In this document: piece by piece, positions 9,001 to 53,740 of the stretch
Layout of the letters: every line of letters starts with the position of its first letter
How positions within the stretch are numbered: position 1 is the stretch's first letter
Origin: Bacteroidota bacterium
GTDB lineage: Bacteria; Bacteroidota; Bacteroidia; UKL13-3
Assembly (NCBI GenBank): GCA_027488905.1
Contig: JAIYAT010000020.1
Coordinates: 246,490 to 310,489 of the forward strand
Length of the DNA: 64,000 bases
Direction: 5' to 3'
The notes under the pieces: model-generated
What the model saw: only the letters and a program-made list of their open reading frames with translations
Databases searched by the model: none
Told to the model about the DNA's origin: nothing
Made by a program: the position numbers and the translations under genes

Positions 9001-12000
9001 ATACTTTCAGAAAAAGTACTAGTTTGACGCAACTCTGAATTTGCATTAACTGTTAAATTAATACATTCAAAACCTGAAGAAGAGCCTGTAGGAGTGGTAC
9101 AAAAACGAGCTCCATTGCTGGTATTCCCAATATTTTGACCGTTAATTATAAGGTTTCCCAACATCAACCTTCCAGAACTAATAAAAGTTCCAATATTAAA
9201 TCCAGGCGTTGCACCAGATTTATTTAAACCTGTAGTTCCTCCAATCACCAATGTATTTCCCGCCCAAACATTACTTGGTGATGAAGACCTATAGGCAAAA
9301 CTATATATAGATGTATTTGTATTTAAAAAATGTGGATCCACAATTGTAATGGTTCCCCCGTTTACAAGAACAGTTCCTGTGCTAAAGTTACCTAAAGTAG
9401 CATGACCAATAGAGAATAAATCTACAGTATTGAGCACACTGCCACTTGCTGTTCCATTGTTACCATCAATATTTATAAACCCGCCTCCCATTACAAATGA
9501 AGCTCCATTTAAAATGGCCATGTTTCCATTTACATTAATGGTTGCTGTGTTAGAAATATTTAATGAACCAGAAACTAAAAATGAGCGATTGCCTCCACCA
9601 TTTGGACCAATGTATAACGAATCTGAGCTAGCATTTAATACTCCTCCATTGTTTATAGTTAAGTTATTCGCAAAATAAGGTTGTACACCTCCAGAAAGCC
9701 CAATGGTATGTCCACTTTGGATAATAACATTTTGATTAGAATTTGGAACAAGCCCAGTAGACCATGTACTTGGATTTCCCCAATCTCCTGAAGCGATAGA
9801 GGTAACAGTAGTAACTTCTGAACCATAGTTGGCATTTTGAGCTGCCATGTAAAAGGATGACAAGAGAGCAGAAATTGTTGGCACCCTTAATCTATTAGCC
9901 ACTGGGTTAGCAGATGATGTTCCAGTTCCTACGCCAACAAATCCTACCAAAGTTCTACCATCTGGTCCAGATAAGGTAACATCTACTAAAGAATTAATTG
10001 TTTGCAAAGCATTTGAACCCTGAATTCTCAAACTAACGTTTTGGCCAGAAGCCAACACTGGTGTGTTTGAAGGGGAAGAAATACTCCAGTTACAATTGGT
10101 TCTGCGATGCAATACCATATGTCTCCAAATTCTATGTGTACCTATTCCAGTTCCGGTCCAAGTAAGTGCAGTTCCACCTCTTGTGGCAGAAATCTGAATA
10201 GTGTTACCCGCAACACTTACTACATAATAATTGGAATTTGAAGTTAAGCCCGTTGGCAAAGTACCACCACTTCTTAACCTTACAGTATCTCCTACTACCA
10301 ATGGATAATCTGCCATGCTAGAAACCACAATATTTGGAGACGTAATGGTAGTTACCTGAAATGATGTGGTATCCAATTGATTAGGTTCAATTGGTGTTTG
10401 GGTAAGATTAGAGGTTCCTGTTGTAGCATCATGTTGCACCCCAATTAACCCTCCTGTACTTAGTGCTGTGGCCGAACTAAAATACAACCAAACATGCCTA
10501 TTGGTAAGAGGGGCACCCATTGGAAAATGACCTACACTGCCATTGAAAGCAGAGGTTGGCAGCCCTGAAGTTGGAAACCACCTGTAAAACAACCCTGACG
10601 AATTAGTTATGATATTTCCTGCCGAATAGCTGTAAGAACCTGGTGTGGCAACAGCAGTTCCTAAGGTTAAATCATTTGCGCCAAGGGTAATATCACCACT
10701 TGTCATGGTAAGTGTATCTACAACTAATGATTTAGACAAGGTAACACCTAGAGGATTATTCACTAAAAACCTTCTTAAATTTAGGCTTGACCCAACTGGA
10801 ACTTCATTGCCAGTCCCCATTGAAATTGCATTTCTGCTTTGAATATATTGCAAATGCATGTTTCCAGCAGAAACGTTAAAGGTTGGTGTTGAATTAAACG
10901 TTCCTGCGTCAAAATTTGTTAACCCCGACCCAACAATTACAAAAGGATTGTGTCCTGGTAAAGACCTGCCAATTGTTAGCACATTACCAGAACCCATGCT
11001 TACATTTCCAAAACTTAATTGAACCTGCGTAAAAGTTAGATTTTTGTTTAAAGTTACCCCAGAAAGATTAGCTACTTGTAACCCAAAAATATTCTCTATA
11101 TCCCCTAAACCTCCAACTTGTTGTTGACCCGATAAGCCGTCTAAAATTAAGGTACCTAATAATGAGGTAGTATTTCCAGGCTCAGCGCCCATTAATTTTC
11201 CTCCTGCGGCAATGTTGATATTACCTCTCACAGATAAGTTAAAGCCTGTAGTTGCATTTCCAGTAAACAAGTATCCATTAGATTCTATAGTTAAATTGTT
11301 TTGAACCAAAGAAGCGCCAGTTAATCTTGCCATCCTAGAAGGAAAAGCATCCACCCTATTGTTTATTACTAAATTCCAAACTGGAAATCCTAGGTTCAAA
11401 CCGAAACCACAGTTATTGGCAAATGGCCCTCCAGTTTGAGTACTTATAGCATCTCCAATTTGAAGCGTACCTCCAGTAATTACCTTACTACCTCCTGCTG
11501 GCAAAGCAACTGTAGTTAAACCTGCCACAGGTATTGGATTGCGAATAAGGATTGTCCCTCCTGTCCATAAAACGGTTTGTAATGAACCTAAAGAAAATTG
11601 ATTAAATGAAGTGTTACTGGCAACCAATGGATTGGCATCATCAATATTAATCGTTCCACCAGTCATAGTAAACATAACACTTGTAGCATTAGAGTTACCC
11701 CAAAGTAAGCCGGCATAACAGTTTAAAGTTCCACCATTGATAACTAGCGCTGCACTTGAACCATTTGAAAAAATAATATCTGTATTTCCCCCAGAACCAT
11801 AGGTAAAAGTTCCTGCATCAATCCTAAGTTCACCAGAAATATTACTCTGGCCGCCATTAGAAGCAGTAAAAGGTGTATTTTGAGAAATTAACGCATTTGG
11901 GTGATTAATCCATAAGCGGCCTGCTGCTCCTACCATAGAAACTGATCCAGCATAAGGAAAAACGGTAATACCCACATTAACTTTTATAGTTCCAGCATTG

Positions 12001-13694
12001 ATATTTAATTTGTTTTGTGAACCAACTGCCGGAGCAATTGTAAAAATTGAATTCAATTCATAGGTAGGATTTAAGTCTCTGTGTAAGGCCACATTTCCTT
12101 TTGTAAAGGTTAAAGAAAAGAAATCCATTGTTCCTGTCCCACTCAGTTGGCCATTTAAATAACCATTTACAGTAAGACTAACCCCCCCAGAGGTGTTTAA
12201 GTCTAAGTTTCCATTAACCGTAATATTGCCTTCGTTCATGGCTAAACCAGAAGCTCCACCAACGGTCAAAGCATGTGTGGTAAGACTTCCTGCCCCAGCT
12301 GTAAAGGATCCTCCTGAGTTAACTATTAAATTGCCATTTACTGTTAAAGATGCAGTTACGGCTTCAGAATATTCCAAAGTTCCACTAACGGTAAGATTTC
12401 TACAATTTAAATTGCTATTGTCTAAAGTAACACCTGAACCTGCTGGAATAATAACATTCTCTAAGTTTGTTGGCACAACCCCGCCTACCCATGTAGTGCT
12501 GCTCGACCAAAATCCACCCAAGGCTGTTGCCGTAATGGTGCTTCCTCCAAGTGTGATGGCATTTCCAGTAGCAGCAACAGAACTATAAGATTCCTTCCTA
12601 GCATAAACCTGCCAATGGTAGGTAGTTCCTGCTCGTAAAGGAGCTACATTTAAAGTATTAAGGGTATTAGTATTTGCCAAAACAGAAGTAAACCAAGAGT
12701 AAGAAGCTCCGGCATTGTCTGAAATATAAATATCAAATCCTGTTTCGTTATTAGAATTATCATTCCATTGCAAAAACATCCCGTCTGAAGAAATCCCAGT
12801 CAATACCAAATTAGTTGGAGATGCAGGCTCAACTGGTGTAAAACGATAAAACCTTCTATTTGGATCGGCACTGCTACTTAAACTGCTTATTGGCCCTGAG
12901 GTTGAACGTGAAAAAGAAAAAGGTGTTAAATTTGGCGGATTAACTTGCTCTGTATGTGAAGTTATATCAATTAATTTTTGAATAGTTGCTGTAGCAGTAT
13001 TAAAACCAACTATGAAATTACCCAATCCATTTAAGTTGTCAACAAACATATTCCCATACACATATTCAACAACTCCAGTGCGCTCATACAAACGCAATTG
13101 CCATGTACTTAAATTAGATGAATTTATGGTGGTTGAATTTTGTGATAAACGCATATTTTGAAATTCAACCACTAAACATCTATTTGGAAAAGATCCTATT
13201 AATTTACTGTGAATTTTTCCATTGCTTGCAGGCCCCATTCCACTGATTAAACCACCCGCACTGCTAACTCCAAATGGAGACAAGGTATTTGTTATAGTGC
13301 CATAAAAATTTGTTGGTGCTGGCACATTAAACCCCAATTGAACAATACCAGCTTGGTTAAGACCTAACTGGTTAATTTTCGTCCCCATAAAATAGAAGTC
13401 GAATCCTATATTTACCACTGGTGAAGAAGCGGCTGTTCTGCCACCCTCAACCAATGTGGTAGTTCCAGATGTCATATCAACCGCGTTCGAATTCATGTCT
13501 AAACCCAAAGAACCATTATTATTGGTGCTGTAGGAATAATTAACAAGATTTGCTTGACCCCAAACTTGCGTGAAAGAAATTAACAGCATGGCAATAAGCA
13601 AAACAAAAGAATGCCATTTTCGAAAATCTGCTCGAGAAGTAGGGCTTAAAATGCTAGCATGAACTAATGGGAATTGCCAATTAAGTTTAGCCAT
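1..13694 (-). CDS. Giant secreted/cell-surface repeat protein (partial; C-terminus lies beyond the window start). Over 4,560 codons. It has an N-terminal signal peptide and an FN3-like domain, followed by very long Gly/Thr/Asn/Ser-rich beta-strand repeats
   Basis: The minus-strand ATG is at 13692-13694 (MAKLNWQFPLVHASILSPTSRADFRKWHSFVLLIAMLLISFTQVWGQ...). The ORF track shows no minus-strand stop-terminated ORF anywhere in 1-14122, so this frame stays open to position 1. Hand translation near 12600-12720 gives GFDIYISDNAGASYSWF...LRAGTTYHWQVYA, which is FN3-like. Every listed plus-strand ORF in 64-12588 is an antisense artefact of the repeats. Confidence 0.7.
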   Translation of the reverse strand, partial: MAKLNWQFPLVHASILSPTSRADFRKWHSFVLLIAMLLISFTQVWGQANLVNYSYSTNNNGSLGLDMNSNAVDMTSGTTTLVEGGRTAASSPVVNIGFDFYFMGTKINQLGLNQAGIVQLGFNVPAPTNFYGTITNTLSPFGVSSAGGLISGMGPASNGKIHSKLIGSFPNRCLVVEFQNMRLSQNSTTINSSNLSTWQLRLYERTGVVEYVYGNMFVDNLNGLGNFIVGFNTATATIQKLIDITSHTEQVNPPNLTPFSFSRSTSGPISSLSSSADPNRRFYRFTPVEPASPTNLVLTGISSDGMFLQWNDNSNNETGFDIYISDNAGASYSWFTSVLANTNTLNTLNVAPLRAGTTYHWQVYARKESYSSVAATGNAITLGGSTITATALGGFWSSSTTWVGGVVPTNLENVIIPAGSGVTLDNSNLNCRNLTVSGTLEYSEAVTASLTVNGNLIVNSGGSFTAGAGSLTTHALTVGGASGLAMNEGNITVNGNLDLNTSGGVSLTVNGYLNGQLSGTGTMDFFSLTFTKGNVALHRDLNPTYELNSIFTIAPAVGSQNKLNINAGTIKVNVGITVFPYAGSVSMVGAAGRLWINHPNALISQNTPFTASNGGQSNISGELRIDAGTFTYGSGGNTDIIFSNGSSAALVINGGTLNCYAGLLWGNSNATSVMFTMTGGTINIDDANPLVASNTSFNQFSLGSLQTVLWTGGTILIRNPIPVAGLTTVALPAGGSKVITGGTLQIGDAISTQTGGPFANNCGFGLNLGFPVWNLVINNRVDAFPSRMARLTGASLVQNNLTIESNGYLFTGNATTGFNLSVRGNINIAAGGKLMGAEPGNTTSLLGTLILDGLSGQQQVGGLGDIENIFGLQVANLSGVTLNKNLTFTQVQLSFGNVSMGSGNVLTIGRSLPGHNPFVIVGSGLTNFDAGTFNSTPTFNVSAGNMHLQYIQSRNAISMGTGNEVPVGSSLNLRRFLVNNPLGVTLSKSLVVDTLTMTSGDITLGANDLTLGTAVATPGSYSYSAGNIITNSSGLFYRWFPTSGLPTSAFNGSVGHFPMGAPLTNRHVWLYFSSATALSTGGLIGVQHDATTGTSNLTQTPIEPNQLDTTSFQVTTITSPNIVVSSMADYPLVVGDTVRLRSGGTLPTGLTSNSNYYVVSVAGNTIQISATRGGTALTWTGTGIGTHRIWRHMVLHRRTNCNWSISSPSNTPVLASGQNVSLRIQGSNALQTINSLVDVTLSGPDGRTLVGFVGVGTGTSSANPVANRLRVPTISALLSSFYMAAQNANYGSEVTTVTSIASGDWGNPSTWSTGLVPNSNQNVIIQSGHTIGLSGGVQPYFANNLTINNGGVLNASSDSLYIGPNGGGNRSFLVSGSLNISNTATINVNGNMAILNGASFVMGGGFINIDGNNGTASGSVLNTVDLFSIGHATLGNFSTGTVLVNGGTITIVDPHFLNTNTSIYSFAYRSSSPSNVWAGNTLVIGGTTGLNKSGATPGFNIGTFISSGRLMLGNLIINGQNIGNTSNGARFCTTPTGSSSGFECINLTVNANSELRQTSTFSESITVAGNLVNNGLITTLQTTTPSTILTEGGIKLAMLSGTTEVASIFNQTISGTGNWSNQLSAIPTGWNAGANYQVGDVITITNGTSASPIRLFVASITATGGIGSWGISDPGRDYTTLPISPFAISGGSGTGASITTFTYLNRTAHISALVVGSQSGNSTQLPVVNPIEWDINNLVIERLSLVNGIVKLDENNFILGRTLNITTAPTMHGGLLAWATPSTTALGGFINTTGSFRRVISSLSVTTVASPGTGTTSFPTAIVASGGSPSLGVFPMVAQSGFRHRYFTFAYSATPSVTTPGIYSAQHFDTAGITTTPGFVETNIYNRVTKSDWVITMPTAITYTAGPTLTTRIQGNMAVLPSNITTTSMCLSTGLIAPGSLSNGTGTTTTIQANRSFIPFAGLINSWSICAPNTDLASVTAASGNWNTPATWLANSVPTASENVIIQEGHTVALNTTLPTSASCNNLTINTGGALNATGNTLTIGSLNNSLLDANGSLLIDGATLNVNGRMTVANAANSAFTFLSGTINVDGNDGSIANSVTSGNTLCLIGTTGAVNVVGGNLNIIDPPIGTSGNAFQFLGGVNFVWPNLNLTFGDGSSSTQAAFNGTNLTADFGFNISTSGVRIGNLIINSGNTLNRRVINTSILWVRNNITISAGSQLRNSGTLGLAGNLINDGEMINTGTLSFSLSGAINSLAQNVTGSGTFRNSIPSISGFASGTGYAVGDILQIQPSGTSGSPIEFYVTSVSSGNVTGGFVSNMGALTGSYDNTSAHVMNGGSGLSQTCSSVISPIPVAMFTNLTIANSNANGINMAAVSGQVNAANNFNTVSSSLTLGSSLIDFGSNNFAHGFRDPLTTATPSVNPGFPSFSIGARVKTTGAVTRWIQANAAPNIPNAFGGLCPVGTNSDVRYFGFFWPLASSVTTGGYVSVVHTPTAGLNTVTAFTDGPLSINRVTSGTWQVSTGGGLVSTGAVSIRIFGYGLLAPPSPADISITLAATAAPGTYASGSGLVATQPQANRLLASQADLNNTFRIGANVTNLFERVTIASGNWNDPAIWDGGTSIPGTNDNVKIKSGHTVALNTNSNIISLNVQNGATLNAPANDLNITASLTASGSVNLTGANVTIGGGTQSGILIPNNGLLNITAGVVTLGPAGGGDRLVNHQAGATLTQTGGTFNINGNIAFAGGTFNMSGGNMNIDPNSGVIATSLAPNLNVFNVATTLGGTVNGGTITIVDPLLQHGTGFAFTSSATIANEWVGNTLRFGDGSSTQASGHAGGFQVNMSSNHVLGNVIINGGNASRRFVNVGSISSSPFGNLSATNLTINAGSELRFMGVDAAGVALNISGNFENNGAMVGGASLNFRRGTGNLSALSQTLSGTGLFTTRAFRVTSTSVAGTGYMIGDTLTFTGGTASTQAQILVTGVDGSGGINNWVHFTNGDYSVLPTSPVTLSGGTGTGAIVNINPATTATNGLAMLGRGNLLNVSFFNSNLAGINWEVDGLRVINNISFSTTSGVVNRVNLGTNNLTLGDSTTTLTGTLSWSAGGFTSTTGKFRRWMSTSNFPTSAFTGSPGHFPFFNGNYLRHLFLYSSTASALSAGGIFEASHNFGTGISPITLVIDNGYPINNQGNASWTVGTANANGAAALAIASGININLALRGDSLPNIVNTISDLRIMQASSVSGLHISGTGTAANPQAQRAFSSLTELANTHYFAGHVSNFNSITPIFTIANGNWADPTIWNTNTVPTELNNVTISHTVNLVGGTSFGAFSLTLNSGGILIANSNTLSVFGGITSNAGSSIIINGATLNAANLSLTGAFEINSGTSNLIGGSLIGLTINNGGAYKQTGGTVNVGLGNNFSRFLVSSSSTSRDSISGGSLNINGNMVIQGPFVQTGGVITIDGNSGVASTSVASGNPLFHLNHNSLSNGCLFNGGSIVIVDPHHESLSSATLTNQSIYFQTQSFYTSFSGTHTFQLGDGISTTPGIASGFAVETYGAFSNNCPLQNLVVNGGNGLNRFGATSAGNSTIYGTYIKGNLTINSGSEFRHVNSVAVPFEVGGNIVNNGILTNEGLSPLLLGSAGIFVPQSSQTISGTGVFRNLVPRGPSPYSLPPSVSNPTSDEDVGNITITQGATTILNNTTAVNSLSGTIGVAGSGSVTGSYSNFTGYGPYNLNAGVLHGFSVSSIQTGGSWQNAMAIWIDYNQNGVFTDAGEQIHLGGIVAGNHTQSGTFTVPITAISGNTRMRVLCNEGTITGPTMAVSFGEYEEYTVNIVGSTGVFQMPSANTRNITINNTVSGAVITSTIDSLSFSGSLILTNGRFATTGKITMLNGSAISRTNGFVDGYLERYFATGANVAQTFFTGTGVQYAPITLTYPTVSTAGYAKWKSVAGDHPEIDLTCLNANASVNRYFEFGSNTVLPLTYNANFTYGAGDNDAGVTPATYVAYRYTNSTWSTNITPFGTPTNTNFVLNGQTALGAFQIGNQPLGVTNTTLASQTGCTGSNSRIITNASGPGLNYQWLFKCNSCSTFVNLSNGASYAGVDNDTLTIISSAAGQEGQYFCNITTSCVPGAQTDTMTFTLNPGLADNTVSGNQTICTGTIPAAFTGSVPTGGNSSYNYQWLRSTTSATSGFSVSFGTTSLQDYNYPFTLTQNTWLRRLVTSGQCRDTSSSVLVTVNPLISNNTITGAQQIITGFSADSINGSIPLGGNGTYSFAWISRTPTSIFGSATGTNTNRVYYPGVLNDTTYFRRIVSAGVCPSDTSGIIEITVNPIITNNIISSNQTICTGSTATQLTGTIPAGGNGAFSYRWLSSTTSASSGFVFASGVNIGSSYNPGVRTTTTWFKRVVSSSGGFDTSAAIEITVNSIISNNSISSSQDVINGTIPFSLTGTTPSGGNGTYLFQWEISTSGPSSGFTNASGTSTDKDFIPGALITDTWYRRAVSAGVCPSNTSAAIKMTIVSPIANNTIGSNQTICSGNAPSGLLGSTPTGASGVFTYQWISSTTGSDNNFIQASGV

Positions 13695-14122
13695 TTGATT
13701 GTTATAGCTGAATGACTCTTTTAACTTTTTGAGATTAAAAAAGTGATGCAACCTAACATTACTAACTCTTGAATTTTGATGATTCATATAGGTTTGATTT
13801 AGTTAATTTTCTATTTCAAACCAGGCAATAAGATTCCCAGAAGCCCTAAAGCTAAATTGATTATCAAGATTTTATGTAAAATCTACTTAAATGTTTAAAT
13901 CAATTGTAAAGTTCTCTCGATAGGCGTCTTTTCTCTTTATTGTCTAGTTTTTTGATATATGAACATAAAGAAGGTCAAGAACTTTGACAACTACTTAACA
14001 ACCTAACAATTAGTAGAATTATGCGAATGGCATAAAATACTCTGTTAACAATTACTTTACTTACTTAAAATACTAAATATTTTCTTAATTCAAGTTAAAA
14101 TGAAATTAAAATTAGGTAATTT

Positions 14123-27239: not shown

Positions 27240-27261
27240 ATAAGATTCGATTGATTACAAA

Positions 27262-27296
27262 AAAGCGGCTTTCTCCAAGGAGAAAGCCGCTTTTCA
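27262..27296. terminator. Bidirectional rho-independent terminator between convergent recA and the yceI-like gene
   Basis: aagcggctttctccaaggagaaagccgctttt: a 12-bp perfect stem with flanking T/A runs. Confidence 0.75.
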
Positions 27297-27327: not shown

Positions 27328-27870
27328 CTAACCCTTTTTAACCAACAACATATCAACTTTCACATCGATTTCTTCAGCAATTTTTGCCGTAACAACTGTT
27401 GGCACTGTAATTTTATGATCGGCTACCTTTACTTTGAAGTTACTCACCAATTGAATTTTACCATCCTTTATAGTTAAAGTTCCAGCAATGGTTCTGTTTT
27501 GTTCTACACCATGTATATTTAAAATTCCAGTTGCAGTAACCGCATATTCTCCATCTTTGGTGTAATCAATTTTCTCATTGATTTTACCTTTGAAAGTACT
27601 CTTTGGATTTTTATCGCTTTCCATGTACTTCTCGTTAAAGTGCTCTTGCATGAGTTTATTCTCAAATTCAAAAGACATATTAGTTATAGCGATTGCTATG
27701 TCATTGGTCTCAGCTCTTAACACAGCTAATACGGTTGTGTTTTCTGCTTTGATATCTTCAATGGGTGTCTTAGAAAAAAATCCAACTTTGCCACCTGCAG
27801 TTGAATACATTTGGGCATTGGCTAAAAATCCTAATCCAACCATTGCCATACTTAACATTACTTTTTTCAT
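27328..27870 (-). CDS. YceI-like periplasmic/lipid-binding protein
   Basis: 180 aa with a signal peptide and typical YceI-family length and beta-rich composition (...KVGFFSKTPIEDIKAENTTVLAVL...). Confidence 0.55.
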   Translation of the reverse strand: MKKVMLSMAMVGLGFLANAQMYSTAGGKVGFFSKTPIEDIKAENTTVLAVLRAETNDIAIAITNMSFEFENKLMQEHFNEKYMESDKNPKSTFKGKINEKIDYTKDGEYAVTATGILNIHGVEQNRTIAGTLTIKDGKIQLVSNFKVKVADHKITVPTVVTAKIAEEIDVKVDMLLVKKG

Positions 27871-27989: not shown

Positions 27990-28889
27990 CTACTTTTTCT
28001 TTTTATCAAATGAAAAAGTACGTGCAATATTAAACCCTAAACGCACACCGCCATTAGACCAACTGCTTACTGTTTCTGTAACCATGTGTTGCTCCAACAT
28101 GCCGCGTCCATTGCTAACCATTAACTGAAACACATGTCCTCCTGTTTCAATGTCAAATCCAGCGGCAAGGTAGTTGTAGCGCTTATTGCCTTCTATAGAT
28201 AATTTATCTTTGCCATTTAGCATTGGGTAATACTCAAAATTAAATCTGAAACTTCTGTTCAATTTTATACTCCCTCCCATTCCTAAAGAGAAAATAGTAT
28301 TTGGGTCGTCTATTAATCTTACCAAATTATAATGAACAATAGTGGGTGCAAGTTGCAAACTCAAATTGTCTCCCATTTTGCGAGCTATAATCATTTGATT
28401 GAAATACGACATGCGAGAGGTGAAATAATTGTTGCGGTCTGGATTGACCCATGTAAGCGTATTGACTGCTAAATTTCCATAATAATTAAGCGTAATGGGT
28501 ACACCTCCTTTACCTTTACTTTGCTTTAGCAGTTTTACTTTTAAGTTAGCATCATAAGATTTACCTACAGAACTTCTGGCAAAGCCAAGTTGAATGCGGT
28601 CTGTGAGGCCATAATCAAAAACCAGTCTTATGTTGGCTTGATCCAAACCCCAAAGTTCGTAAGCCCCGCCATTGATTTCACCAAAACGATGAAGAATAAC
28701 AAAGTTAAGATGCTTTTTAGCTAAATGCTCATTGCTTTGCCCGTTTAGAACACGCGTTGATTTAAAGGTAGCAAAAACAGGTACAGGCTTAGACGGATTA
28801 TCATTTTCGAGCATTTGCAATAAATCATCTTGAGCAGATGATAAAAATCCAATCATTAGCAAACTTATAGTGAGTAGTATTCTTTTCAT
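27990..28889 (-). CDS. Hypothetical outer-membrane beta-barrel-like protein
   Basis: Signal peptide MKRILLTISLLMIGFLSSAQ. Alternating hydrophobic beta-strand pattern and a C-terminal aromatic residue (…RTFSF…). Last gene of the minus-strand CxxCH cluster. Confidence 0.35.
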   Translation of the reverse strand: MKRILLTISLLMIGFLSSAQDDLLQMLENDNPSKPVPVFATFKSTRVLNGQSNEHLAKKHLNFVILHRFGEINGGAYELWGLDQANIRLVFDYGLTDRIQLGFARSSVGKSYDANLKVKLLKQSKGKGGVPITLNYYGNLAVNTLTWVNPDRNNYFTSRMSYFNQMIIARKMGDNLSLQLAPTIVHYNLVRLIDDPNTIFSLGMGGSIKLNRSFRFNFEYYPMLNGKDKLSIEGNKRYNYLAAGFDIETGGHVFQLMVSNGRGMLEQHMVTETVSSWSNGGVRLGFNIARTFSFDKKKK

Positions 28890-28894: not shown

Positions 28895-29230
28895 TTAATT
28901 ATTAGGTGCTCCAGCGTCGAGCCAACGTTTCAACTTTGCCAAATCTGTGGCACCTAAAGCACCTGAAGGTGGCATGTCCTTTTTTACTAAAACCCGATTG
29001 TTAAATTTCCCATTGTCAACCACCGTTTTTAGTCCGCTATAAGTCATGTAAGAAGCGTGGCAACTTGCACCGCATTTAGCGTCTAGTAAGGGTTTAACAA
29101 AAGCCGAGTAAGTTACAGCAGTGGTGTCTGTATTGTTAAATTCATTTGGATACAATAGTTCTTCTTTGTCTTTGTAACAAGATTGAAGAAAGGCCAAAAG
29201 AACAAATACTGATATTAATTTATATTTCAT
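28895..29230 (-). CDS. Small secreted c-type cytochrome-like protein (PSCyt1-like motif)
   Basis: Signal peptide. CGASCH (CxxCH) followed by ...KKDMPP...LAKLKRWLDAGAPN, which matches the CxxCH...MPP...W(I/L)xxGA arrangement of planctomycete-type cytochrome c domains. Confidence 0.45.
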   Translation of the reverse strand: MKYKLISVFVLLAFLQSCYKDKEELLYPNEFNNTDTTAVTYSAFVKPLLDAKCGASCHASYMTYSGLKTVVDNGKFNNRVLVKKDMPPSGALGATDLAKLKRWLDAGAPNN

Positions 29231-29232
29231 AT

Positions 29233-29697
29233 TTAATCGATACTTAATTGCGGTGTTGAAACGCCATGACAGCTATTGCAGCTTCCACCATTAAAGGCAG
29301 AACCCATGGAAATAGTTTTATCATTTAAAGTGATGCTTGGGTAGGCACCACCCTTAAAATTTAGAATTTGATTGGTGTAAAAATTACCCAAATCATCCGC
29401 AACAAGGCGTTTGATTAAGTTGCCTTGGCGGCCTGGTTTTTCCCAAATTTCGACAATGGCATTTTTTTGAGGCCTTCCATTTGACTGAAAGGTGGTTCCT
29501 GAAATGGTCCACCAGCCAGCTTGTTCTGCTTCATTTCCATTCACATTATGGCAACTTCCACAATTCCTTCCAGCATTATGACTTTCATCTCCACCAAGTT
29601 CAGACTCTTTAGGATTGGCTTGGAGTTCTTCAAAATGTGAACAGGAAATCCAAAACATGATGGTTAAGAAACTAATTAGAACAGTTATATATTTCAT
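29233..29697 (-). CDS. Lipoprotein with two CxxCH haem-binding motifs
   Basis: The likely start is MKYITVLISFLTIMFWISC (lipobox-like). Motifs CGSCHN and CNSCHG. Confidence 0.4.
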   Translation of the reverse strand: MKYITVLISFLTIMFWISCSHFEELQANPKESELGGDESHNAGRNCGSCHNVNGNEAEQAGWWTISGTTFQSNGRPQKNAIVEIWEKPGRQGNLIKRLVADDLGNFYTNQILNFKGGAYPSITLNDKTISMGSAFNGGSCNSCHGVSTPQLSID

Positions 29698-29699
29698 AT

Positions 29700-30404
29700 T
29701 TATTGAGGACAAGCATTTGCGGCCCAAAGTTGCAAGATTCTTTTGTTACACGCATTTAATGGTGTTCCGCCTTTTGGCATTGTTCCACCTAAAACACTTC
29801 CTACCACATTTCCATTAAGTGTAAATTGTTTGGCACTGGCATAAGTATCTAATATCACATTTCCACTAGAATTGTTAGCATTATGACAACCTACACAATT
29901 TGCGGTAAGCAACTTACTAACTTGCTTGGTGTAGGTAACATTTAGTGTATCGCAGCTACTTGAATTACAATCTACTTTTTTAGCTCCTTGGTTTATCCAT
30001 TTTGCAATAAGTGCAATTTGTGTAGCACTTAATTTTGCATTTGGTGGAGGTGGCATTATTTTATCTGGCTTTGTTTCTGTTATTACTTCATACAATTCAC
30101 TTTTCCCAGGATTGAATGGTGTAATTCTGCCAGAAGCCATTACATTGGTATAAGAATTTAATATAATTCCTTCGGCGGCAGTGCCAGAATCATGGCATCC
30201 ACTCATGGCGCAATTAGAATTTAAAATGGGTAATATGTCTTTGTCAAAATAGACAATGTTGGAGTCACAAGGTGTGGGATTATTATTCCCCGTAGTATCT
30301 GTTGGCTTAGTGGTTGGGTTAACAATTTCTGTTTTGTGTTGACAGGCTTCCAGAATAACTAAAAAGCCGAAAACTGTGAGTGTTATGAGTAGTAAATTTT
30401 TCAT
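29700..30404 (-). CDS. Lipoprotein with a PSCyt1-like cytochrome c domain plus a second CxxCH
   Basis: MKNLLLITLTVFGFLVILEAC.... ...SGCHDSG...ELYEVITETKPDKIMPPPPNAKLSATQIALIAKWINQGA is a PSCyt1-like signature. A second motif CVGCHN is present. Confidence 0.45.
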   Translation of the reverse strand: MKNLLLITLTVFGFLVILEACQHKTEIVNPTTKPTDTTGNNNPTPCDSNIVYFDKDILPILNSNCAMSGCHDSGTAAEGIILNSYTNVMASGRITPFNPGKSELYEVITETKPDKIMPPPPNAKLSATQIALIAKWINQGAKKVDCNSSSCDTLNVTYTKQVSKLLTANCVGCHNANNSSGNVILDTYASAKQFTLNGNVVGSVLGGTMPKGGTPLNACNKRILQLWAANACPQ

Positions 30405-30607
30405 TATTTAAATATTATTAATACTTAATTGAGTGTTGTGATTATAAAGGATATCGACCCTATTTCAAATTTTCTGATGCTATTGATAATTTTCTAATAT
30501 GTATATCGATATTAAGAACTTACGTCAAAGTTAATGAGATTAGGAAAAAAAATAACTGATTAAAAACATAAAATCGAAGCTATTCAATTGTTTCAAACCA
30601 AAACCTC

Positions 30608-45271: not shown

Positions 45272-47683
45272 ATGATAGATAAAAAGTCCCTTTCTGAAAG
45301 AGATATATGCACCAAGTTTATTACCCCTGCGGTTGAGAAAGCGGGATGGAATAGACTGACGCAGTTATTGGAGGAAGTTTCGTTCACGGATGGAAAAATT
45401 TATGTGAGAGGTAAACTGACTGCAAGAGGAAATAAAAAACGAGCCGATTATATTCTGTATTACAAACCCAATATTCCTATTGCCATCATTGAGGCCAAAG
45501 ACAACAAGCATTCTGTTAGAGCGGGTATTCAACAGGCTTTGGATTATGCTCAAATACTTGATATCCCTTGTGTTTTTAGTAGCAATGGGGATGGCTTTTT
45601 GTTTCACGACCGTACCGCTACAGATGGTAATATTGAAACTGAAATTGGCTTAGATGATTTTCCAAGTCCCGAACAACTTTGGGAGAAATACAAAATTTAC
45701 AAAGGCATCGCAACGCCATCCGCTGAAAAGATTGCTTCACAAGATTATTATTTTGATGGTTCAAACCGAAAACCAAGATACTACCAACAAATTGCAGTAA
45801 ACAGAACTGTGGAAGCCATTGCCAACGGACAAAATCGTATTATTTTGGTAATGGCAACAGGTACTGGAAAAACTTATACTGCTTTTCAAATCATTCACAG
45901 ACTTTGGAAAAGTGGTGCAAAAAAACGCATTCTGTTTTTGGCCGACCGTAACGCATTAATTGACCAGACTCGCAGAGGCGACTTTAAACATTTTAAGGAT
46001 AAAATGACGGTGGTAAAGCACCGACAAATTGATAAGAGCTATGAAATCTATTTGGCATTATACCAAGGCTTATCTGGTACTGATGAGGATGCAAATGTGT
46101 ACAAACAATTTTCACCAGACTTCTTTGACTTGATTGTTATTGACGAGTGCCACCGAGGAAGTGCAAAGGAAGACAGCAGTTGGAGAGAAATTTTATCCTA
46201 TTTCAAAAACGCAACACATATTGGTTTAACTGCTACGCCAAAAGAAACCAAAGAAACAAGCAATACAGAATATTTTGGCGACCCAGTTTATACTTATTCC
46301 TTAAAACAAGGAATTGACGATGGTTTCCTTGCTCCCTATCGCGTAGTTAGAATTGGATTGAATATAGATGCTGAGGGTTGGCGTCCCGACCAAGGTAAAA
46401 CAGATAAAGATGGAAACGAAGTTGAAGATAGGGTTTATAACCGCAAGGACTTTGACCGAAATTTAGTAATAGAAGAACGCACAGAATTGGTTGCAAAAAA
46501 ACTCACTGAGTTCTTAAAAGGCTATGATCGTTTTGCAAAAACCATTGTGTTTTGTGTAGACATTGACCATGCTGAACGCATGCGAACGGCTTTGGCCAAA
46601 CATAATGCTGATTTGGTGGCAGAGAATTACAAGTATGTCATGCAAATTACAGGCGACAATGATGAAGGCAAACGAGAATTAGATAACTTCATCAACCCCG
46701 AAGAAAAATATCCTGTGATTGCCACTACCTCTGAATTAATGACAACAGGTGTGGATGCACAAACCTGTAAAGTAATTGTATTGGATGCCAATATCAATTC
46801 AATGACCAAGTTCAAACAAATCATTGGCAGAGGCACTCGCATCAATGAAGAATATGGTAAGCTTTATTTCACCATTCTTGATTTTAGAAACGCAACCGAT
46901 TTGTTTGCCGACAAAGATTTTGATGGTGACCCAATTCGTGTAAAGCCTGTTTCGCAAGACGAAGATTTATCATTGGTAGTAATTGAAGAAGAAGAAAATT
47001 CAGTAACCGTTTTAGACGAAGCCACAGGTGAGGAAGTGGTATTTGAAAAAGTTAAAATCCGCTATCCAGATGGCTCACCACTTGATGGAAATTGGGTAGC
47101 AAGAGATAAAAAGGGTTATAGAGAAAAAGTGTATGTAAACGGTGTGGATGTATCTGTTTTGGTGAGCCGTGAAATGTATTTCGACCAACACGGTAAACCC
47201 ATCACAAGCAGTTTAAAAGACCATACCAAAGATATTATCAAAGAAAAGTTTGCTTCGCTCGACGACTTTTTAAATAAGTGGAATTCCACCGACCGCAAAG
47301 AAGCCATCATTGCAGAATTGCAAGAACAAGGAGTAATGGTAGAACCCTTGTATGATGCCGTAAATAAAGAAGTGGATTTGTTTGATTTGATTTGTCATGT
47401 GGCTTTTGACCAACCCCCATTAACAAGGAGAGAAAGAGCCAACAACGTAAAGAAGCGAAACTACTTTACCAAATATGGCGAACAGGCCAAAAAAGTATTG
47501 GAAGCCTTATTAGATAAATATGCTGATGAAGGCATTACCAATATTGAAAATATAGAAGTGTTAAGAATTAATCCATTTGATTCTTTTGGATCACCTTTGG
47601 AAATCATCAACGAGTTCGGAAGTAAACAAAATTACTTTGCTGCCATCAAAGAACTGGAGACAGAACTATACAAACAGGCCTAA
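45272..47683 (+). CDS. hsdR: Type I restriction enzyme R subunit (short form, 803 aa)
   Basis: N-terminal PD-(D/E)xK nuclease region (ADYILYY...IAIIEAKD). SF2 helicase motifs (MATGTGKT Walker A; VIDECHR DEAH box; GLTATP motif III; later TTSELMTTGVD/QIIGRGTR motifs V/VI). Confidence 0.85.
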   Translation: MIDKKSLSERDICTKFITPAVEKAGWNRLTQLLEEVSFTDGKIYVRGKLTARGNKKRADYILYYKPNIPIAIIEAKDNKHSVRAGIQQALDYAQILDIPCVFSSNGDGFLFHDRTATDGNIETEIGLDDFPSPEQLWEKYKIYKGIATPSAEKIASQDYYFDGSNRKPRYYQQIAVNRTVEAIANGQNRIILVMATGTGKTYTAFQIIHRLWKSGAKKRILFLADRNALIDQTRRGDFKHFKDKMTVVKHRQIDKSYEIYLALYQGLSGTDEDANVYKQFSPDFFDLIVIDECHRGSAKEDSSWREILSYFKNATHIGLTATPKETKETSNTEYFGDPVYTYSLKQGIDDGFLAPYRVVRIGLNIDAEGWRPDQGKTDKDGNEVEDRVYNRKDFDRNLVIEERTELVAKKLTEFLKGYDRFAKTIVFCVDIDHAERMRTALAKHNADLVAENYKYVMQITGDNDEGKRELDNFINPEEKYPVIATTSELMTTGVDAQTCKVIVLDANINSMTKFKQIIGRGTRINEEYGKLYFTILDFRNATDLFADKDFDGDPIRVKPVSQDEDLSLVVIEEEENSVTVLDEATGEEVVFEKVKIRYPDGSPLDGNWVARDKKGYREKVYVNGVDVSVLVSREMYFDQHGKPITSSLKDHTKDIIKEKFASLDDFLNKWNSTDRKEAIIAELQEQGVMVEPLYDAVNKEVDLFDLICHVAFDQPPLTRRERANNVKKRNYFTKYGEQAKKVLEALLDKYADEGITNIENIEVLRINPFDSFGSPLEIINEFGSKQNYFAAIKELETELYKQA

Positions 47684-47749
47684 ATAAGGTTAATAATCCC
47701 TCAAAATGAAATTTGCAATTATCAAATCTGATTATATATTTGCCATCAA

Positions 47750-47800
47750 CATGCTCACCCCGCTTCCCGTAGAACAGCGCGCTCAGGGTGAGCTTTTTAT
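47750..47800 (+). terminator. Rho-independent terminator between hsdR and the Abi gene
   Basis: gctcaccccgcttcccgtagaacagcgcgctcagggtgagctttttattttt: a stem gctcaccc/gggtgagc followed by a T-run. Confidence 0.65.
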
Positions 47801-47812
47801 TTTTATAGAGGT

Positions 47813-48709
47813 ATGAGTAAAATTAACTACAATAAGCCTCCTCTTTCCTATACAGATCAAATTATCCAGCTAAAACAGCGTGGACTAATTATTAGCAACG
47901 AGCCTAAAGCACTTCACTTACTTGAGAATATCAGTTACTATAGGCTAAGTGGATATTGGTTTCCCCTTCTAGCTGATAAATTTGCTCATCAGTTCAAACC
48001 TAATTCCACTATTGAAACAGCTTTTAATTTATACTGTTTTGACAGAGAATTGCGTCAACTAATGCTTGCCGAAACTGAAAAAATTGAAGTGGCCATCCGA
48101 GCCAAATTGAGTTACGTTTTTTCGCATGCAAACGGCCCTTTTTGGTTTCAGAACCCAACTAATTTCACTAATCCTGGGAAGCATGCTACCTCATTTGCTA
48201 AAATTGAAGAGGAGTTTCAACGAAGTGATGAAGAGTTTATACATGCCTTTAAGGCAAAATACAATAATCCAATACCTCCCAGTTGGATGACATTGGAAAT
48301 AACATCATTTGGCACCTTATCCATTTTGTACAAGAACCTGAGACCTACCCATCAAAAGCGAGAAATTGCGCACTATTTTGGGTTGCCAGATAAAGTTTTT
48401 GAAACCTGGATTCACAGCATCGTTTACCTTCGTAATGTGTGTGCACACCACACCCGTTTGTGGAATAGAGCCATGAGTATTCAACCACAAATCCCAAGAT
48501 CACCGAGAAAACAATGGTTAAATAATGTAAATGTAGCTAATAACAGAACTTATTTTATTTTAAGTATGGTCGCCTATTTATTGCAAACCATAAATCCAAA
48601 CAATCGGTTTACTGATAAATTTAAAGCGCTTTTACACAAATATCCAAACGTAGATACCAGAGCACTAGGCTTCCCAATTGACTGGGAAAATGAACCACTT
48701 TGGAAGTAA
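47813..48709 (+). CDS. Abi_2 (AbiD/AbiF-like) abortive-infection family protein
   Basis: ...LENISYYRLSGYWFP... and ...YLRNVCAHHTRLWN match the conserved Abi_2-family motifs. Inserted between hsdR and hsdM. Confidence 0.7.
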   Translation: MSKINYNKPPLSYTDQIIQLKQRGLIISNEPKALHLLENISYYRLSGYWFPLLADKFAHQFKPNSTIETAFNLYCFDRELRQLMLAETEKIEVAIRAKLSYVFSHANGPFWFQNPTNFTNPGKHATSFAKIEEEFQRSDEEFIHAFKAKYNNPIPPSWMTLEITSFGTLSILYKNLRPTHQKREIAHYFGLPDKVFETWIHSIVYLRNVCAHHTRLWNRAMSIQPQIPRSPRKQWLNNVNVANNRTYFILSMVAYLLQTINPNNRFTDKFKALLHKYPNVDTRALGFPIDWENEPLWK

Positions 48710-48721
48710 CAAACAAATCAT

Positions 48722-50158
48722 ATGAGCAACATATCAGGCATCATAAAAAGCATTCAAAACATCATGTGGCAAGACACTGGCTTAAATGGCGATGCACAAC
48801 GCATTGAGCAATTGGGCTGGATGCTTTTTTTGAAAATATTTTCGGACAAAGACAAAGAATTAGAGTTACTAGACGACAAATACACCTCCCCCATCCCTGA
48901 TAAATTTCATTGGGTAAAAGAAAAAGGAAATTGGGCAGGTGATGATGAAGGAATGACAGGCGATGAATTGTTGGAGTTTGTAGACAGACAATTGTTTCCT
49001 GCCCTGCGCAATTTGGATTTGAGCACAGGGAACCAACGTGCAGTGATCGTACGAGAGGTTTTTGAAGGCAATAACAACTATATGAAAAGCGGCATCAACA
49101 TTCGCAAGGTGTTGAACAAGCTCAACGAAATTGATTTTAACATTGCCAAAGACCGCCATGCTTTTGGCGAATTGTATGAAACCATTTTAAAGGAATTGCA
49201 AAGTGCTGGAAAAAGTGGTGAGTTTTATACGCCACGTGCCATTACGCAGTTCATTACCGAAACCATAAATCCACAATTGGGTGAAAAAGTATTGGACCCT
49301 GCTTGCGGAACGGGCGGCTATTTGACTTGTGCCATTGAGCATTTAAAGAAACAAGCCAAAAATGTGCAAGAACGCAAAAGCATTGAAGACAATATTGCAG
49401 GTTGGGAATACAAACCTTTACCCTATCTGCTGGCAACAACCAATCTCATTTTACACGACATAGAAATACCCAACATCAAATTTGGCGATGCCTTAGACCA
49501 ACCCTTGAGTAACTTTACCGAAAAGCATCGGGTAAATGTAATATTGGCAAATCCACCATTTGGTGGCATTGTAGCCAATAACAACGAAACTAATTTCCCA
49601 CAAACGTATCGTACCAAGGAAAGTGCCGACTTGTTTTTGATCCTAATGATTCATTTACTAAAACAAGATGGACGAGCAGGAATTGTATTGCCCGATGGCA
49701 GTTTAACAGGCGATGGCGTAAAGCAACGCATTCGCCAAAAATTATTGGAAGATTGCAACCTGCATACCATTATCCGTTTGCCTAATTCTGTGTTTCAGCC
49801 TTATGCAATGGTGGCTACCAACTTATTATTTTTTGACAAAGGTTTGCCCACCAAAGACATTTGGTACTATGAGCACCGCATGCCTGAAGGTTACAAATCC
49901 TACAACAAAACAAGACCCATACAAGCCAAAGAGTTTGAACCCATAACCCAATGGTGGAACAAGCGCACCGAAAGCGATATTGCCTGGAAAGTAAATATTA
50001 AAACCATCATCCAAAGAGGCTATGATTTGGATATAAAAAACCCAACCAAACCCGAAGAGGAAAAGGAATACAACAGTGCCGAATTGATGGAAATGCTACA
50101 CACTTCATTTGAGAAAAGTAATTTCTTGTTGAACCAATTAAAACAAGCGGTGAAATGA
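48722..50158 (+). CDS. hsdM: Type I restriction-modification N6-adenine DNA methyltransferase subunit
   Basis: N-terminal HsdM domain (IMWQDTGLNGDAQRIEQLGWMLFLKIF). SAM-binding LDPACGTGG. Catalytic ILANPPFG. Confidence 0.9.
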   Translation: MSNISGIIKSIQNIMWQDTGLNGDAQRIEQLGWMLFLKIFSDKDKELELLDDKYTSPIPDKFHWVKEKGNWAGDDEGMTGDELLEFVDRQLFPALRNLDLSTGNQRAVIVREVFEGNNNYMKSGINIRKVLNKLNEIDFNIAKDRHAFGELYETILKELQSAGKSGEFYTPRAITQFITETINPQLGEKVLDPACGTGGYLTCAIEHLKKQAKNVQERKSIEDNIAGWEYKPLPYLLATTNLILHDIEIPNIKFGDALDQPLSNFTEKHRVNVILANPPFGGIVANNNETNFPQTYRTKESADLFLILMIHLLKQDGRAGIVLPDGSLTGDGVKQRIRQKLLEDCNLHTIIRLPNSVFQPYAMVATNLLFFDKGLPTKDIWYYEHRMPEGYKSYNKTRPIQAKEFEPITQWWNKRTESDIAWKVNIKTIIQRGYDLDIKNPTKPEEEKEYNSAELMEMLHTSFEKSNFLLNQLKQAVK

Positions 50159-51462
50159 GATTAGAATTTATTGAATTGCCTTTTCTCAGTTTAGGAACAT
50201 CAGGCAAGATTAGAACAGGTTCTGGCTTTAATTCTAGTGATTTTACAACTGAGGGAGTTCCCCTTATAAAAATTGGCAATATCAAAAACAACTTAATAGA
50301 TATCAATGATTGCTCATTTATTTCAGAAAACAAGAAGAAAATAAACTTAACCAAAGAAGATGATTTGTTAATTGCAATGCGAGGAGCCACAAGTGGTAAA
50401 CTTGGTATTGTTTCTAGCCAATTTGCTGACTGCTTTTATGTTGGAAGTATTGGTAATCTTGGAAAAATAAATGAAAAATTGATTTATCGTCCATTTATAA
50501 AATATATTGAACAACAATTATATGATATATTAAAGACCGAAGCAAAAGGAACTGCTACTCCAATGGTTTCAATTGGAATGTTAGAAAAATTCAAATTAAT
50601 TATTCCCAAAACGAAGGAACAACAAGAATATTTATTTGAACTTCTTGAAAGCAGAAAAAGACAAGTTGGCAAACTCTCCACCGAACTCACCCACCAACTC
50701 ACCCTCGTAAAAAAGCTCCGACAGCAATTATTGCAAGATGCAGTGCAAGGCCGTTTCGACTTCGCTCAGGGACCAGAGGAAGACGAACCAGCAAGTGAAT
50801 TGCTAAAAAAGATAAAAGCCGCCCTTCGACAAGCTCAGGGTACGAAAAAAATTAAAGAACTACCACCCATCAAACCCGAAGAAATTCCATTTGAAATACC
50901 TGAAAATTGGGTATGGTGTAGGTTGGGGGAGATAATCACACTAATATCTGGTCAAGACCTAACTCCTTCTGAGTACTCTGACAAAGACAATTTCGGTCTA
51001 CCTTATGTCACAGGTGCAAGTAATTTAGATAAGGGTAATGTAATTTTAAATAGATGGACGAATAATCCAAAATCAATTGCAATTGAAAGTGATTTATTAT
51101 TGACATGTAAAGGTTCAGGTGTTGGGAAAATGGCGATATTAAAAGAGAAGAAGGTGCATATTGCCCGACAAATAATGGCTCTACGAAGTAGCTTCATACC
51201 AAATGAATTTTTAAAAACCTTTTTGGAACTACAGGTTGAAAACTTCAGAGGGAAAGCTAAAAGCTTAATTCCTGGTATTGATAGAGATATTGTATTGACT
51301 TTAACATTTCCGCTTCCTCCATTAGCCGAACAACACCGCATCGTTCAAAAATTAGATGAATTGATGCAGTATTGCAATGAGATGGAAGCAAGCATCAAAC
51401 AAAGCCAAGCGCAAAATGAGAAGTTATTGCAACAGGTTTTGAGGGAGGCGTTGAGGAAATAA
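50155..51462 (+). CDS. hsdS: Type I restriction-modification specificity subunit
   Basis: 4-bp overlap with hsdM. Two target-recognition domains separated by conserved helical spacers (…LVKKLRQQLLQDAVQG… and C-terminal …LAEQHRIVQKLDELM…QVLREALRK). Confidence 0.85.
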   Translation: MRLEFIELPFLSLGTSGKIRTGSGFNSSDFTTEGVPLIKIGNIKNNLIDINDCSFISENKKKINLTKEDDLLIAMRGATSGKLGIVSSQFADCFYVGSIGNLGKINEKLIYRPFIKYIEQQLYDILKTEAKGTATPMVSIGMLEKFKLIIPKTKEQQEYLFELLESRKRQVGKLSTELTHQLTLVKKLRQQLLQDAVQGRFDFAQGPEEDEPASELLKKIKAALRQAQGTKKIKELPPIKPEEIPFEIPENWVWCRLGEIITLISGQDLTPSEYSDKDNFGLPYVTGASNLDKGNVILNRWTNNPKSIAIESDLLLTCKGSGVGKMAILKEKKVHIARQIMALRSSFIPNEFLKTFLELQVENFRGKAKSLIPGIDRDIVLTLTFPLPPLAEQHRIVQKLDELMQYCNEMEASIKQSQAQNEKLLQQVLREALRK

Positions 51463-51486
51463 CCAGTTGAGGTTTAAAAAAAATAT

Positions 51487-52092: not shown

Positions 52093-52181
52093 AATGTATA
52101 AAATGTAAAATAAAGTGAAACAGAAATTAATAGGAATTGCCTGAGTTTACAAAAGTGGAGTTGACAAAATAAAAATAGCCT

Positions 52182-53279: not shown

Positions 53280-53395
53280 GATTCAATTTAAGTTAAATTA
53301 ATAGAATTTATATATTCTAAGGAAATACAAGAAACAATTTCATTGATAGTAGTTAATTTAGCGAAAAATATTAGAAATGGAAATAGATTTATAAA

Positions 53396-53740
53396 GATAT
53401 TGGGGGCAGAGGGTCGAAATGTTACGTTTTGCAAAATTTTACCACGTCTAGGAAATACGCTAGCTGGGAAAGTCAATACTATTTTCCAAATTTTCCTGTA
53501 AAGGAAACAATGAGGAAAGTGTTATCAACAGATTAATAACTGTTGAAGCCTTGAAGTTGTGTTTGCGGATGTATTTTCTGAGCATATATAATGTGTTTAT
53601 GGATTTAAGTACAAAGATAACAATTTCTATACCTGAATTGAGTAGCGTTGCCTCCCTTATAAAAGGGTTAAAGCTTCGACAGAGCATGTACATTTCAAAC
53701 CTGCTACATACTATTTTACTAGTATCTGCCCCCTTTTTTT
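53396..53740 (+). ncRNA. Candidate structured ncRNA (retron msr/msd-like or DRT-associated) between the SIR2 and RT genes
   Basis: A ~470-bp non-coding gap. The GC-rich 9-nt inverted repeat GGGGGCAGA (53402-53410) / TCTGCCCCC (53725-53733) brackets ~315 nt and ends 18 nt before the RT start codon, like retron a1/a2 repeats. Internal hairpins include ttttcctgtaaaggaaa and cccttataaaaggg. The small ORFs 53288..53742 look spurious. Confidence 0.3.

Follow-up and report, generated by a model that had tools for sequence, protein, structure and literature searches.

Predicted haem lipoproteins encoded with a DUF5777 beta-barrel protein and a YceI-like lipocalin in Bacteroidota

Do the short cysteine-histidine motifs in three small adjacent genes of a Bacteroidota bacterium mark genuine c-type cytochromes and, if so, with what might these cytochromes work? 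The genes lie in a 64-kb stretch of genomic DNA (lineage Bacteria; Bacteroidota; Bacteroidia; UKL13-3; assembly GCA_027488905.1, contig JAIYAT010000020.1, positions 246,490 to 310,489), here called the window, to whose full length all nucleotide numbering refers; the genes of interest are all on its minus strand, and we name their first three products P1 (234 residues), P2 (154 residues) and P3 (111 residues). The window is AT-rich (~37% G+C) and has many Bacteroidota hallmarks, such as sorting tails of the type IX secretion system. An initial annotation, made from the sequence alone, had described the three genes as a cluster for small secreted proteins or lipoproteins followed by a barrel-like gene, and had considered both real c-type cytochromes and haem-less structural homologues. 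Judged by their sequences and those of their relatives, P1–P3 are very probably haem-carrying electron-transfer lipoproteins with five haems in all, and their genes form a single operon with those for a DUF5777 barrel protein and a YceI-like lipocalin.

Predicted haem sites of P1, P2 and P3

Open reading frames (ORFs) for P1, P2 and P3 are consecutive on the minus strand, as initially annotated (Table 1). The accompanying statement that each carries one or two CxxCH motifs holds for P1, with one, and for P2, with two; P3 has a Cx3CH motif (CGASCH) alone and no CxxCH, and the first P1 site is a Cx4CH, the motifs being CAMSGCH (Cx4CH) and CVGCH (CxxCH) in P1 and CGSCH and CNSCH (both CxxCH) in P2. 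When Cx2-4CH motifs were counted in the 62 six-frame ORFs of at least 100 residues in the window (22,463 residues), five fell within the ~500 residues of P1, P2 and P3 and none in the remaining ORFs; since all five sites are confined to these three proteins, chance does not explain them. The motifs are retained among homologues, in 120/120 for P1, 39/40 for P2 and 38/38 for P3. The longer signature reported for two of the genes, a haem motif followed by MPP and W(I/L)xxGA, is found in P1 and P3.

P1 is made of two PSCyt1/FoxE-like domains. In profile searches, a check suggested by the initial annotation, it scores above three Pfam cut-offs, those of PSCyt1 (43.0 bits, cut-off 22), Cytochrome_CBB3 (32.2 bits, 27) and Cytochrom_C (23.8 bits, 21.3); it alone of the three proteins reaches the PSCyt1 threshold directly, and the description of the cluster as PSCyt1-like is to be narrowed to that extent. 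Across 26 homologues, down to 40% identity, C65, C70, H71, C173, H174 and the pairs M117-P118 and M209-P210, which supply the candidate distal ligands, do not vary, and C170 is at least 90% conserved. Two motifs are present in 120/120 homologues, with Cx4CH preceding CxxCH in 119/120. By structure and by profile, P1 is matched best by FoxE (PDB 5MAB) and PccH (PDB 4RLR; PF22297) and, because the identity is remote (19–25%), these matches indicate a fold class, not orthology. P1 also has a C-x-H sequence (residues 21–23; 30336–30344, minus strand), in which the histidine two positions after Cys21 is at least 90% conserved in the family; this residue is unexplained, both P1 haems already having candidate Met partners.

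By profile comparison P3 is clearly paralogous to the C-terminal domain of P1 (hhalign probability of 99.9 against the P1 family). P3 itself has no Pfam match, and members of its family match CBB3 (7/30) or PSCyt1 (3/30). C53, C57, H58, M86, P87, W103, G107, A108 and P109 are invariant in 30 family sequences, and the family profile aligns end-to-end with that of cytochrome c6 (3dr0, E=0.0046), with C..CH and Met-Pro in register. Across 38 homologues the two cysteines are separated by two residues in 16, three in 7 and four in 15, with both cysteines and the histidine never lost. Because the spacer drifts without any cysteine loss, as expected of a thioether site, the P3 haem site appears functional and not decayed.

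In P2 a predicted beta-sandwich separates the two CxxCH motifs. The two motifs, together with H40 and M131, are present without exception in 27 close homologues and kept in 119–132 of 132 distant representatives, and the module probably holds one His/His and one His/Met haem. In the AlphaFold2 model the sandwich has block-mean predicted local distance difference test (pLDDT) values of ~73–90 and the haem loops values below 50; Foldseek gave weak matches only, to the transthyretin/intradiol-dioxygenase sandwich. No Pfam or NCBIfam model matches P2 at its cut-off, Cytochrome_C7 reaching 21.7 against 24.8 through a haem-motif match. The P2 family, comprising 785 representative clusters at E≤1e-3, is without a Pfam model and includes tandem arrays of two to five modules with up to ten haem motifs. 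Tandem P2-type units (CxxCH, transthyretin-like sandwich, CxxCH) were seen in P0199 (702 residues), P0200 (589 residues), P0213 and P0203. We rejected P2 H21 as a general haem ligand: unlike H40 and M131 it is kept in just 27/132 distant relatives, being conserved only among close ones, and it is analogous to the P1 histidine after the lipid-attachment cysteine.

The N-termini of P1, P2 and P3 each have a hydrophobic segment ending in a family-invariant cysteine (C21, C19 and C18, respectively), which fits the lipoproteins predicted at the outset. In P3-type proteins the mature N-terminus would read C-Y-Y/K-D-K/N-E-E-L-L-Y-P, with 8/11 positions at least 90% conserved among sequences down to 35% identity; this is far beyond the need of a sorting signal, and the segment may serve to dock P3 onto the barrel or to direct its export. 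Taken together, the Pfam thresholds passed by P1, the paralogy of P3 with P1 and the cysteines kept in homologues argue for the first of the two options originally considered, that of real c-type cytochromes.

A five-gene operon and its recurrence

The P1–P2, P2–P3 and P3–DUF5777 gaps are 2, 2 and 5 nt long, and yceI follows the DUF5777 gene after a 119-nt spacer for which no terminator was predicted. Because of the 2–5 nt gaps, the terminator after yceI and the 203-nt gap before P1, the five genes P1-P2-P3-DUF5777-YceI form a single operon, probably transcribed separately from mlaEF. The hairpin beyond yceI is predicted to be a strong, bidirectional intrinsic terminator, common to the convergent yceI and recA genes. 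Ahead of P1 lies a sigma-70-like site, TTGAAA-16-TATAAT at 30468..30441, which matches the consensus at 11/12 positions; Bacteroidota promoters differ from the sigma-70 type. For P2, the mechanical ORF call began at a TTG at 29727; we rejected this start because the N-termini of homologues agree with the ATG at 29697. Genes for MlaE (209 bits) and an MlaF-like ABC ATPase do lie upstream of P1, as initially annotated. A functional link to mlaEF was considered and rejected as the main reading, the adjacency being confined to the window's clade and not found in the commonest architecture of the cluster; since GcpE, a short-chain dehydrogenase/reductase gene, recA and ssb are syntenic in the same clade too, it is best seen as inherited synteny.

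The 299-residue product of the barrel-like gene, correctly placed next to P3 by the initial annotation, is a full-length DUF5777 protein (PF19089, 'membrane bound beta barrel'; 303.3 bits, profile positions 1–247 of 247) with a signal peptide ending ..SSAQ. A strand count by amphipathic periodicity was uninformative, giving six fragmentary segments, and a profile of 26 sequences found no solved relative in the PDB. Among these sequences, down to 38% identity, 32 positions are invariant, including H67, H186, D246, E248 and H252 and the run D-x-E-T-G-G-H-V-F-Q, a degree of conservation that would be more typical of a ligand/cofactor or catalytic site than of a passive pore. The YceI-like protein has a signal peptide and scores 44.3 bits against the Pfam YceI cut-off of 23.7. 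The remark that this is no textbook operon is borne out by the papers searched, which make no mention of DUF5777 or PF19089; searches on DUF5777, PF19089, PSCyt1, and YceI with cytochrome c in Bacteroidetes returned no functional study of the cluster.

Neighbourhood conservation, a further check suggested at the outset, was assessed from both ends, and the set recurs from either. A P1 search over one genome per species gave relatives at 589 loci; the best 80 are almost all labelled Bacteroidota or Bacteroidia, with finer labels mainly of Saprospiraceae, Lewinellaceae, Chitinophagaceae, Sphingobacteriales and Flavobacteriales. In metagenomes the cluster occurs at no fewer than 588 loci. Where at least 3.2 kb were available downstream of P1 (63 loci), a P3-type gene was found at 52, DUF5777 at 51 and YceI at 50. 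Conversely, a DUF5777 profile search of metagenomes yielded 42 loci with enough upstream sequence, at 38 of which YceI was present and at 39 of which a Cx2-4CH ORF stood alongside.

The commonest gene order, seen at 36 loci, is P1, P3, a ~135-residue OB-fold protein, YceI and DUF5777. The order P1, P2, P3, DUF5777, YceI is found at seven loci, without an OB-fold gene in the cluster, as in the window. The OB-fold protein is membrane-anchored and present at 57/81 loci, and PF12869 (tRNA_anti-like) is matched at L001 (9118–9528) and L082 (6818–7234). P2 and the OB-fold protein look mutually exclusive, because the OB-fold gene is missing where a P2-type dihaem gene is present. In one protein (P0305, 457 residues) a P3-like domain is fused with a P2 module and a P1-like dihaem unit, and a further P3-like gene and DUF5777 come after it; P3-like and P1 domains also occur fused in tri- and tetra-haem proteins, and no cytochrome–DUF5777 fusion was seen among the proteins examined. 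Another locus, L089, has two P2-like genes, a P3-like gene, YceI and DUF5777 and is without P1. Because of this P1-less locus and the fusion locus, the invariant core is the barrel with a monohaem cytochrome of the P3 type and, in most cases, YceI, and the additional haem modules are interchangeable. At L001 (3582–7653), L082 (8098–9682) and about ten other loci a second YceI, a LytTR-type regulator and a Reg_prop/Y_Y_Y/PF06580 sensor kinase are encoded just upstream of P1; the LytTR-type regulator is not found in the window's clade.

Table 1 Features of the operon, predicted haem sites and the defence island, in window positions or residue numbers.
Feature	Position	Strand	Remarks
P1 gene	29700..30404	-	234 residues; putative lipoprotein, dihaem c-type cytochrome
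P1 haem site 1	C65-AMSG-C70-H71	-	Cx4CH
P1 haem site 2	C170-VG-C173-H174	-	CxxCH
P1 candidate distal Met	M117-P118, M209-P210	-	by conservation
P2 gene	29233..29697	-	154 residues from ATG; putative lipoprotein, dihaem module
P2 layout	CxxCH C46-C49-H50; sandwich residues ~62-130; CxxCH C140-C143-H144	-	
P2 candidate distal ligands	H40, M131	-	by conservation
P3 gene	28895..29230	-	111 residues; putative lipoprotein, monohaem class-I c-type cytochrome
P3 predicted mature N-terminus, C-Y-K-D-K-E-E-L-L-Y-P	residues 18-28, 29147-29179	-	
P3 haem site	C53-GAS-C57-H58	-	Cx3CH
P3 candidate distal ligand	M86-P87	-	by conservation
DUF5777 outer-membrane beta-barrel gene	27990..28889	-	299 residues; Pfam PF19089
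YceI-like periplasmic lipocalin gene	27328..27870	-	180 residues; Pfam YceI; last operon gene
Terminator hairpin (predicted)	27261..27294	none	15-bp perfect GC-rich stem, A and T runs on flanks
Intergenic region mlaF-like gene / P1	30405..30607	-	203 nt; probable operon promoter region
HsdR	45272-47683	+	type I restriction-modification
AbiD/Abi_2 gene between HsdR and HsdM	47813-48709	+	PADLOC AbiD 270 bits
HsdM	48722-50158	+	type I restriction-modification
HsdS	50155-51462	+	type I restriction-modification
SIR2-like ORF	52182-53279	+	weak
DRT2 reverse transcriptase	53752-55275	+	PADLOC Drt2 461 bits

Elsewhere in the window, a defence island occupies 45272–55275 on the plus strand, and the 52–56 kb stretch has 29–30% G+C. 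No complete ORF of at least 150 residues was listed in positions 1–14100, suggestive of a giant gene that continues beyond the start of the window. An ORF of 2241 residues lies within 57258–63983 on the minus strand.

Possible roles at the outer membrane

YceI-family lipocalins crystallise with octaprenyl compounds or ubiquinone-8, and those of Proteobacteria occur with cytochrome b561, through gene linkage or as fusions, in a system that curbs the peroxidation of membrane lipids (PMC9113575). We lean slightly towards reading the operon as an envelope electron-transfer module, in which haem lipoproteins work with YceI-bound quinone at the outer membrane and with DUF5777. P1 (two haems, His/Met), P2 (two haems) and P3 (one haem, His/Met) would be Sec-exported, lipid-anchored c-type cytochromes, and their five haems would provide a short electron relay, either periplasmic or at the outer membrane, exchanging electrons with periplasmic respiratory carriers on one side and, on the other, with a quinone or quinol that YceI would offer at the DUF5777 barrel or inside it. 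The outcome would be a redox-active lipid cofactor at the outer membrane that is kept reduced or oxidised, making the module a c-type, outer-membrane counterpart of the proteobacterial b561–YceI (LcoA-BcnA) pair, which acts against lipid peroxidation. Inferred in this picture are haem attachment, lipidation, a quinone as the ligand of YceI, which way the electrons flow and what the module does in the cell. A specifically antioxidant or outer-membrane lipid role is possible but doubtful. At L089 (272–9047), in a higher-GC genome, the set lies directly downstream of genes for thioredoxin, AhpC/peroxiredoxin, DUF2231, a fatty-acid hydroxylase and Fe-superoxide dismutase, a setting that fits an antioxidant role, if anecdotally.

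Several observations weigh against such a quinone-linked module. The oxidative-stress neighbourhood, with its superoxide dismutase and AhpC, was found at that one locus only, and, apart from the generic Por_Secre_tail sorting domain (14), all that recurs among 149 flanking genes is a two-component system, a LytTR regulator (10) with a PF06580/Y_Y_Y sensor kinase (8–9). YceI is missing at 4/42 DUF5777 loci and at the fusion locus L085, and the quinone carrier may for this reason be accessory. The ORFs scanned in the window include no Ccs/Ccm maturation genes; Cx3CH and Cx4CH are non-standard haem sites, and we have assumed maturation by system II, which is usual in Bacteroidota. The closest structural relatives of P1, FoxE and PccH, serve in taking up electrons from outside the cell, a role that favours a different terminal partner.

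That partner could be a metal. The operon might encode a small porin-plus-cytochrome conduit for metal redox outside the cell or at the outer membrane, in which P3 might be exposed on the surface. Electrons would come from Fe(II) or another external donor or pass to Fe(III)/Mn(IV), for example in reductive iron acquisition, and the conduit would be functionally like FoxE, PccH or Cyc2. We consider this unlikely, while counting it as the main rival. The best matches of P1 are a putative Fe(II) oxidase and a cytochrome of electron uptake (FoxE and PccH; PMC10654088, PMC13591261), the cytochrome genes are obligately coupled to that of an outer-membrane barrel, and P2-type tandem arrays with up to ten haem motifs resemble extended conduits. 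The predicted mature P3 N-terminus, C-Y-K-D-K-E-E, is similar to C-X-K-(D/E)2, the export signal of Bacteroidetes lipoproteins (PMC5080379), yet its acidic motif is two positions off the experimentally optimal one. The barrel domain of ~250 residues is, however, far below the size of MtrB/PioB-type sheaths, and YceI is left without a role. FoxY and FoxZ partners are absent, and no iron, iron-uptake, TonB-receptor, oxidase or stress genes recur in the 149 flanking genes. Saprospiraceae, Chitinophagaceae and Lewinellaceae are ordinary aerobic heterotrophs, and their prominence among the titled carriers suggests a housekeeping and not a lithotrophic role. What chiefly separates the two readings is the terminal partner.

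A broader form of the proposal would be a new kind of trans-envelope redox conduit, common across Bacteroidota, in which lipid-anchored mono- and dihaem cytochromes, one possibly surface-exposed, YceI-carried menaquinone and a small ligand- or cofactor-binding DUF5777 barrel move electrons across or into the outer membrane. It is improbable in our estimation; if true, such a conduit would be mechanistically distinct from the Mtr/Pio/Cyc2 and b561–YceI systems and would equip ordinary aerobic Bacteroidota for redox reactions at the outer membrane or outside the cell.

The invariant residues of the barrel raise a further alternative, in which DUF5777 itself is the effector, either an outer-membrane enzyme (a lipid- or isoprenoid-modifying oxidoreductase) or a cofactor barrel to which the cytochromes supply electrons and YceI the substrate. 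Its 32 invariant positions, with three histidines, D246 and E248, would be unusual in a passive porin, and DUF5777 is the constant partner in all cluster variants. We nevertheless hold this to be quite improbable, DUF5777 being without similarity to any solved protein or known outer-membrane enzyme and matching no other Pfam family; it also overlaps the quinone-linked module and does not exclude it. Least probable by far are haem-less structural homologues or chance motifs, the other option initially considered, for although the P3 Cx3CH and first P1 Cx4CH motifs are non-canonical, P3 lacks a Pfam match of its own and the P2 haem loops are modelled at low pLDDT, the window's five motifs all fall within P1–P3, profile searches place those of P1 and P3 inside cytochrome folds, the cysteine spacing varies with the cysteines retained, and the Cys..Cys-His sites and distal Met/His are near-invariant in hundreds of homologues while the rest diverges to 35–45% identity.

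To our knowledge, redox protection or use of the outer membrane in Bacteroidota is essentially unknown, and the proteobacterial b561 system is the sole YceI–cytochrome partnership that we know to have been studied. If electrons are indeed moved to the outer membrane, the module would fill a gap in this area; the uncharacterised set of FoxE/PccH-like haem lipoproteins, YceI, DUF5777 and often an OB-fold protein is found at ~590 genome and at least 588 metagenome loci. If it is a routine periplasmic electron shuttle, the result is a useful annotation of three 'hypothetical' genes and nothing beyond. The locus is also a natural test case for haem attachment at Cx3CH and Cx4CH sites, and P2 represents a predicted two-haem beta-sandwich module, so far without a family model, that serves as a repeat unit in multihaem proteins.

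Relation to known systems

FoxE of Rhodobacter ferrooxidans SW2 is a dihaem putative Fe(II) oxidase encoded in foxEYZ, with a motif-Met-motif-Met order (PMC10654088) that P1, given its candidate ligands, would share. It has two CxxCH motifs where P1 has Cx4CH and CxxCH, shares 19% identity with P1 and is no lipoprotein, whereas P1 is a putative one. The partners of FoxE are a pyrroloquinoline quinone (PQQ) protein and an inner-membrane transporter, whereas P1 neighbours DUF5777, YceI and MlaEF; foxY (PQQ protein) and foxZ (transporter) are neither at the locus nor recurrent in the 149 flanking genes. PccH of Geobacter sulfurreducens, a low-potential periplasmic monohaem cytochrome required for electron uptake from electrodes (PMC13591261), is soluble and single-domain, comes from another phylum and has other gene neighbours than P1.

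The planctomycete PSCyt1 (PF07635) proteins share with P1, which exceeds the gathering threshold, the haem motif...MPP...WIxxGA signature. There the domain forms the N-terminus of large DUF1549/DUF1553 proteins, whereas here it occurs in small stand-alone lipoproteins of one or two domains, and the first domain of P1 differs by an invariant two-residue insertion in its haem motif.

MtrCAB, PioAB and Cyc2 likewise pair c-type cytochromes genetically with an outer-membrane beta-barrel. MtrCAB and PioAB have a far larger barrel that surrounds a decahaem protein, and Cyc2 is itself a cytochrome–barrel fusion; the DUF5777 domain has ~250 residues, the cytochromes are separate lipoproteins of one or two haems and YceI belongs to the set.

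Cbp2D and Cbp2E of Cellvibrio japonicus, proposed extracellular electron-transfer proteins, combine YceI-like (X158) quinone-binding domains with small monohaem c-type domains outside the cytoplasm in a proposed electron-transfer chain (PMC8981238), a combination that the operon would share. In LcoA-BcnA of Burkholderia, too, a YceI lipocalin is genetically coupled to an envelope haem protein, the proposed logic being that the cytochrome re-reduces the lipocalin-held quinone (PMC9113575). That cytochrome is an inner-membrane b561, and no cytochrome b561 is found in the operon or among its recurrent neighbours; here c-type lipoproteins with five predicted haems would take its place, with an outer-membrane barrel as an obligatory partner. 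The folds themselves are known (class I/PSCyt1-type cytochromes, YceI and an outer-membrane barrel of a DUF family) and no new principle is required by anything seen so far, while their conserved combination is undescribed and best called a variant of the cytochrome-plus-YceI theme.

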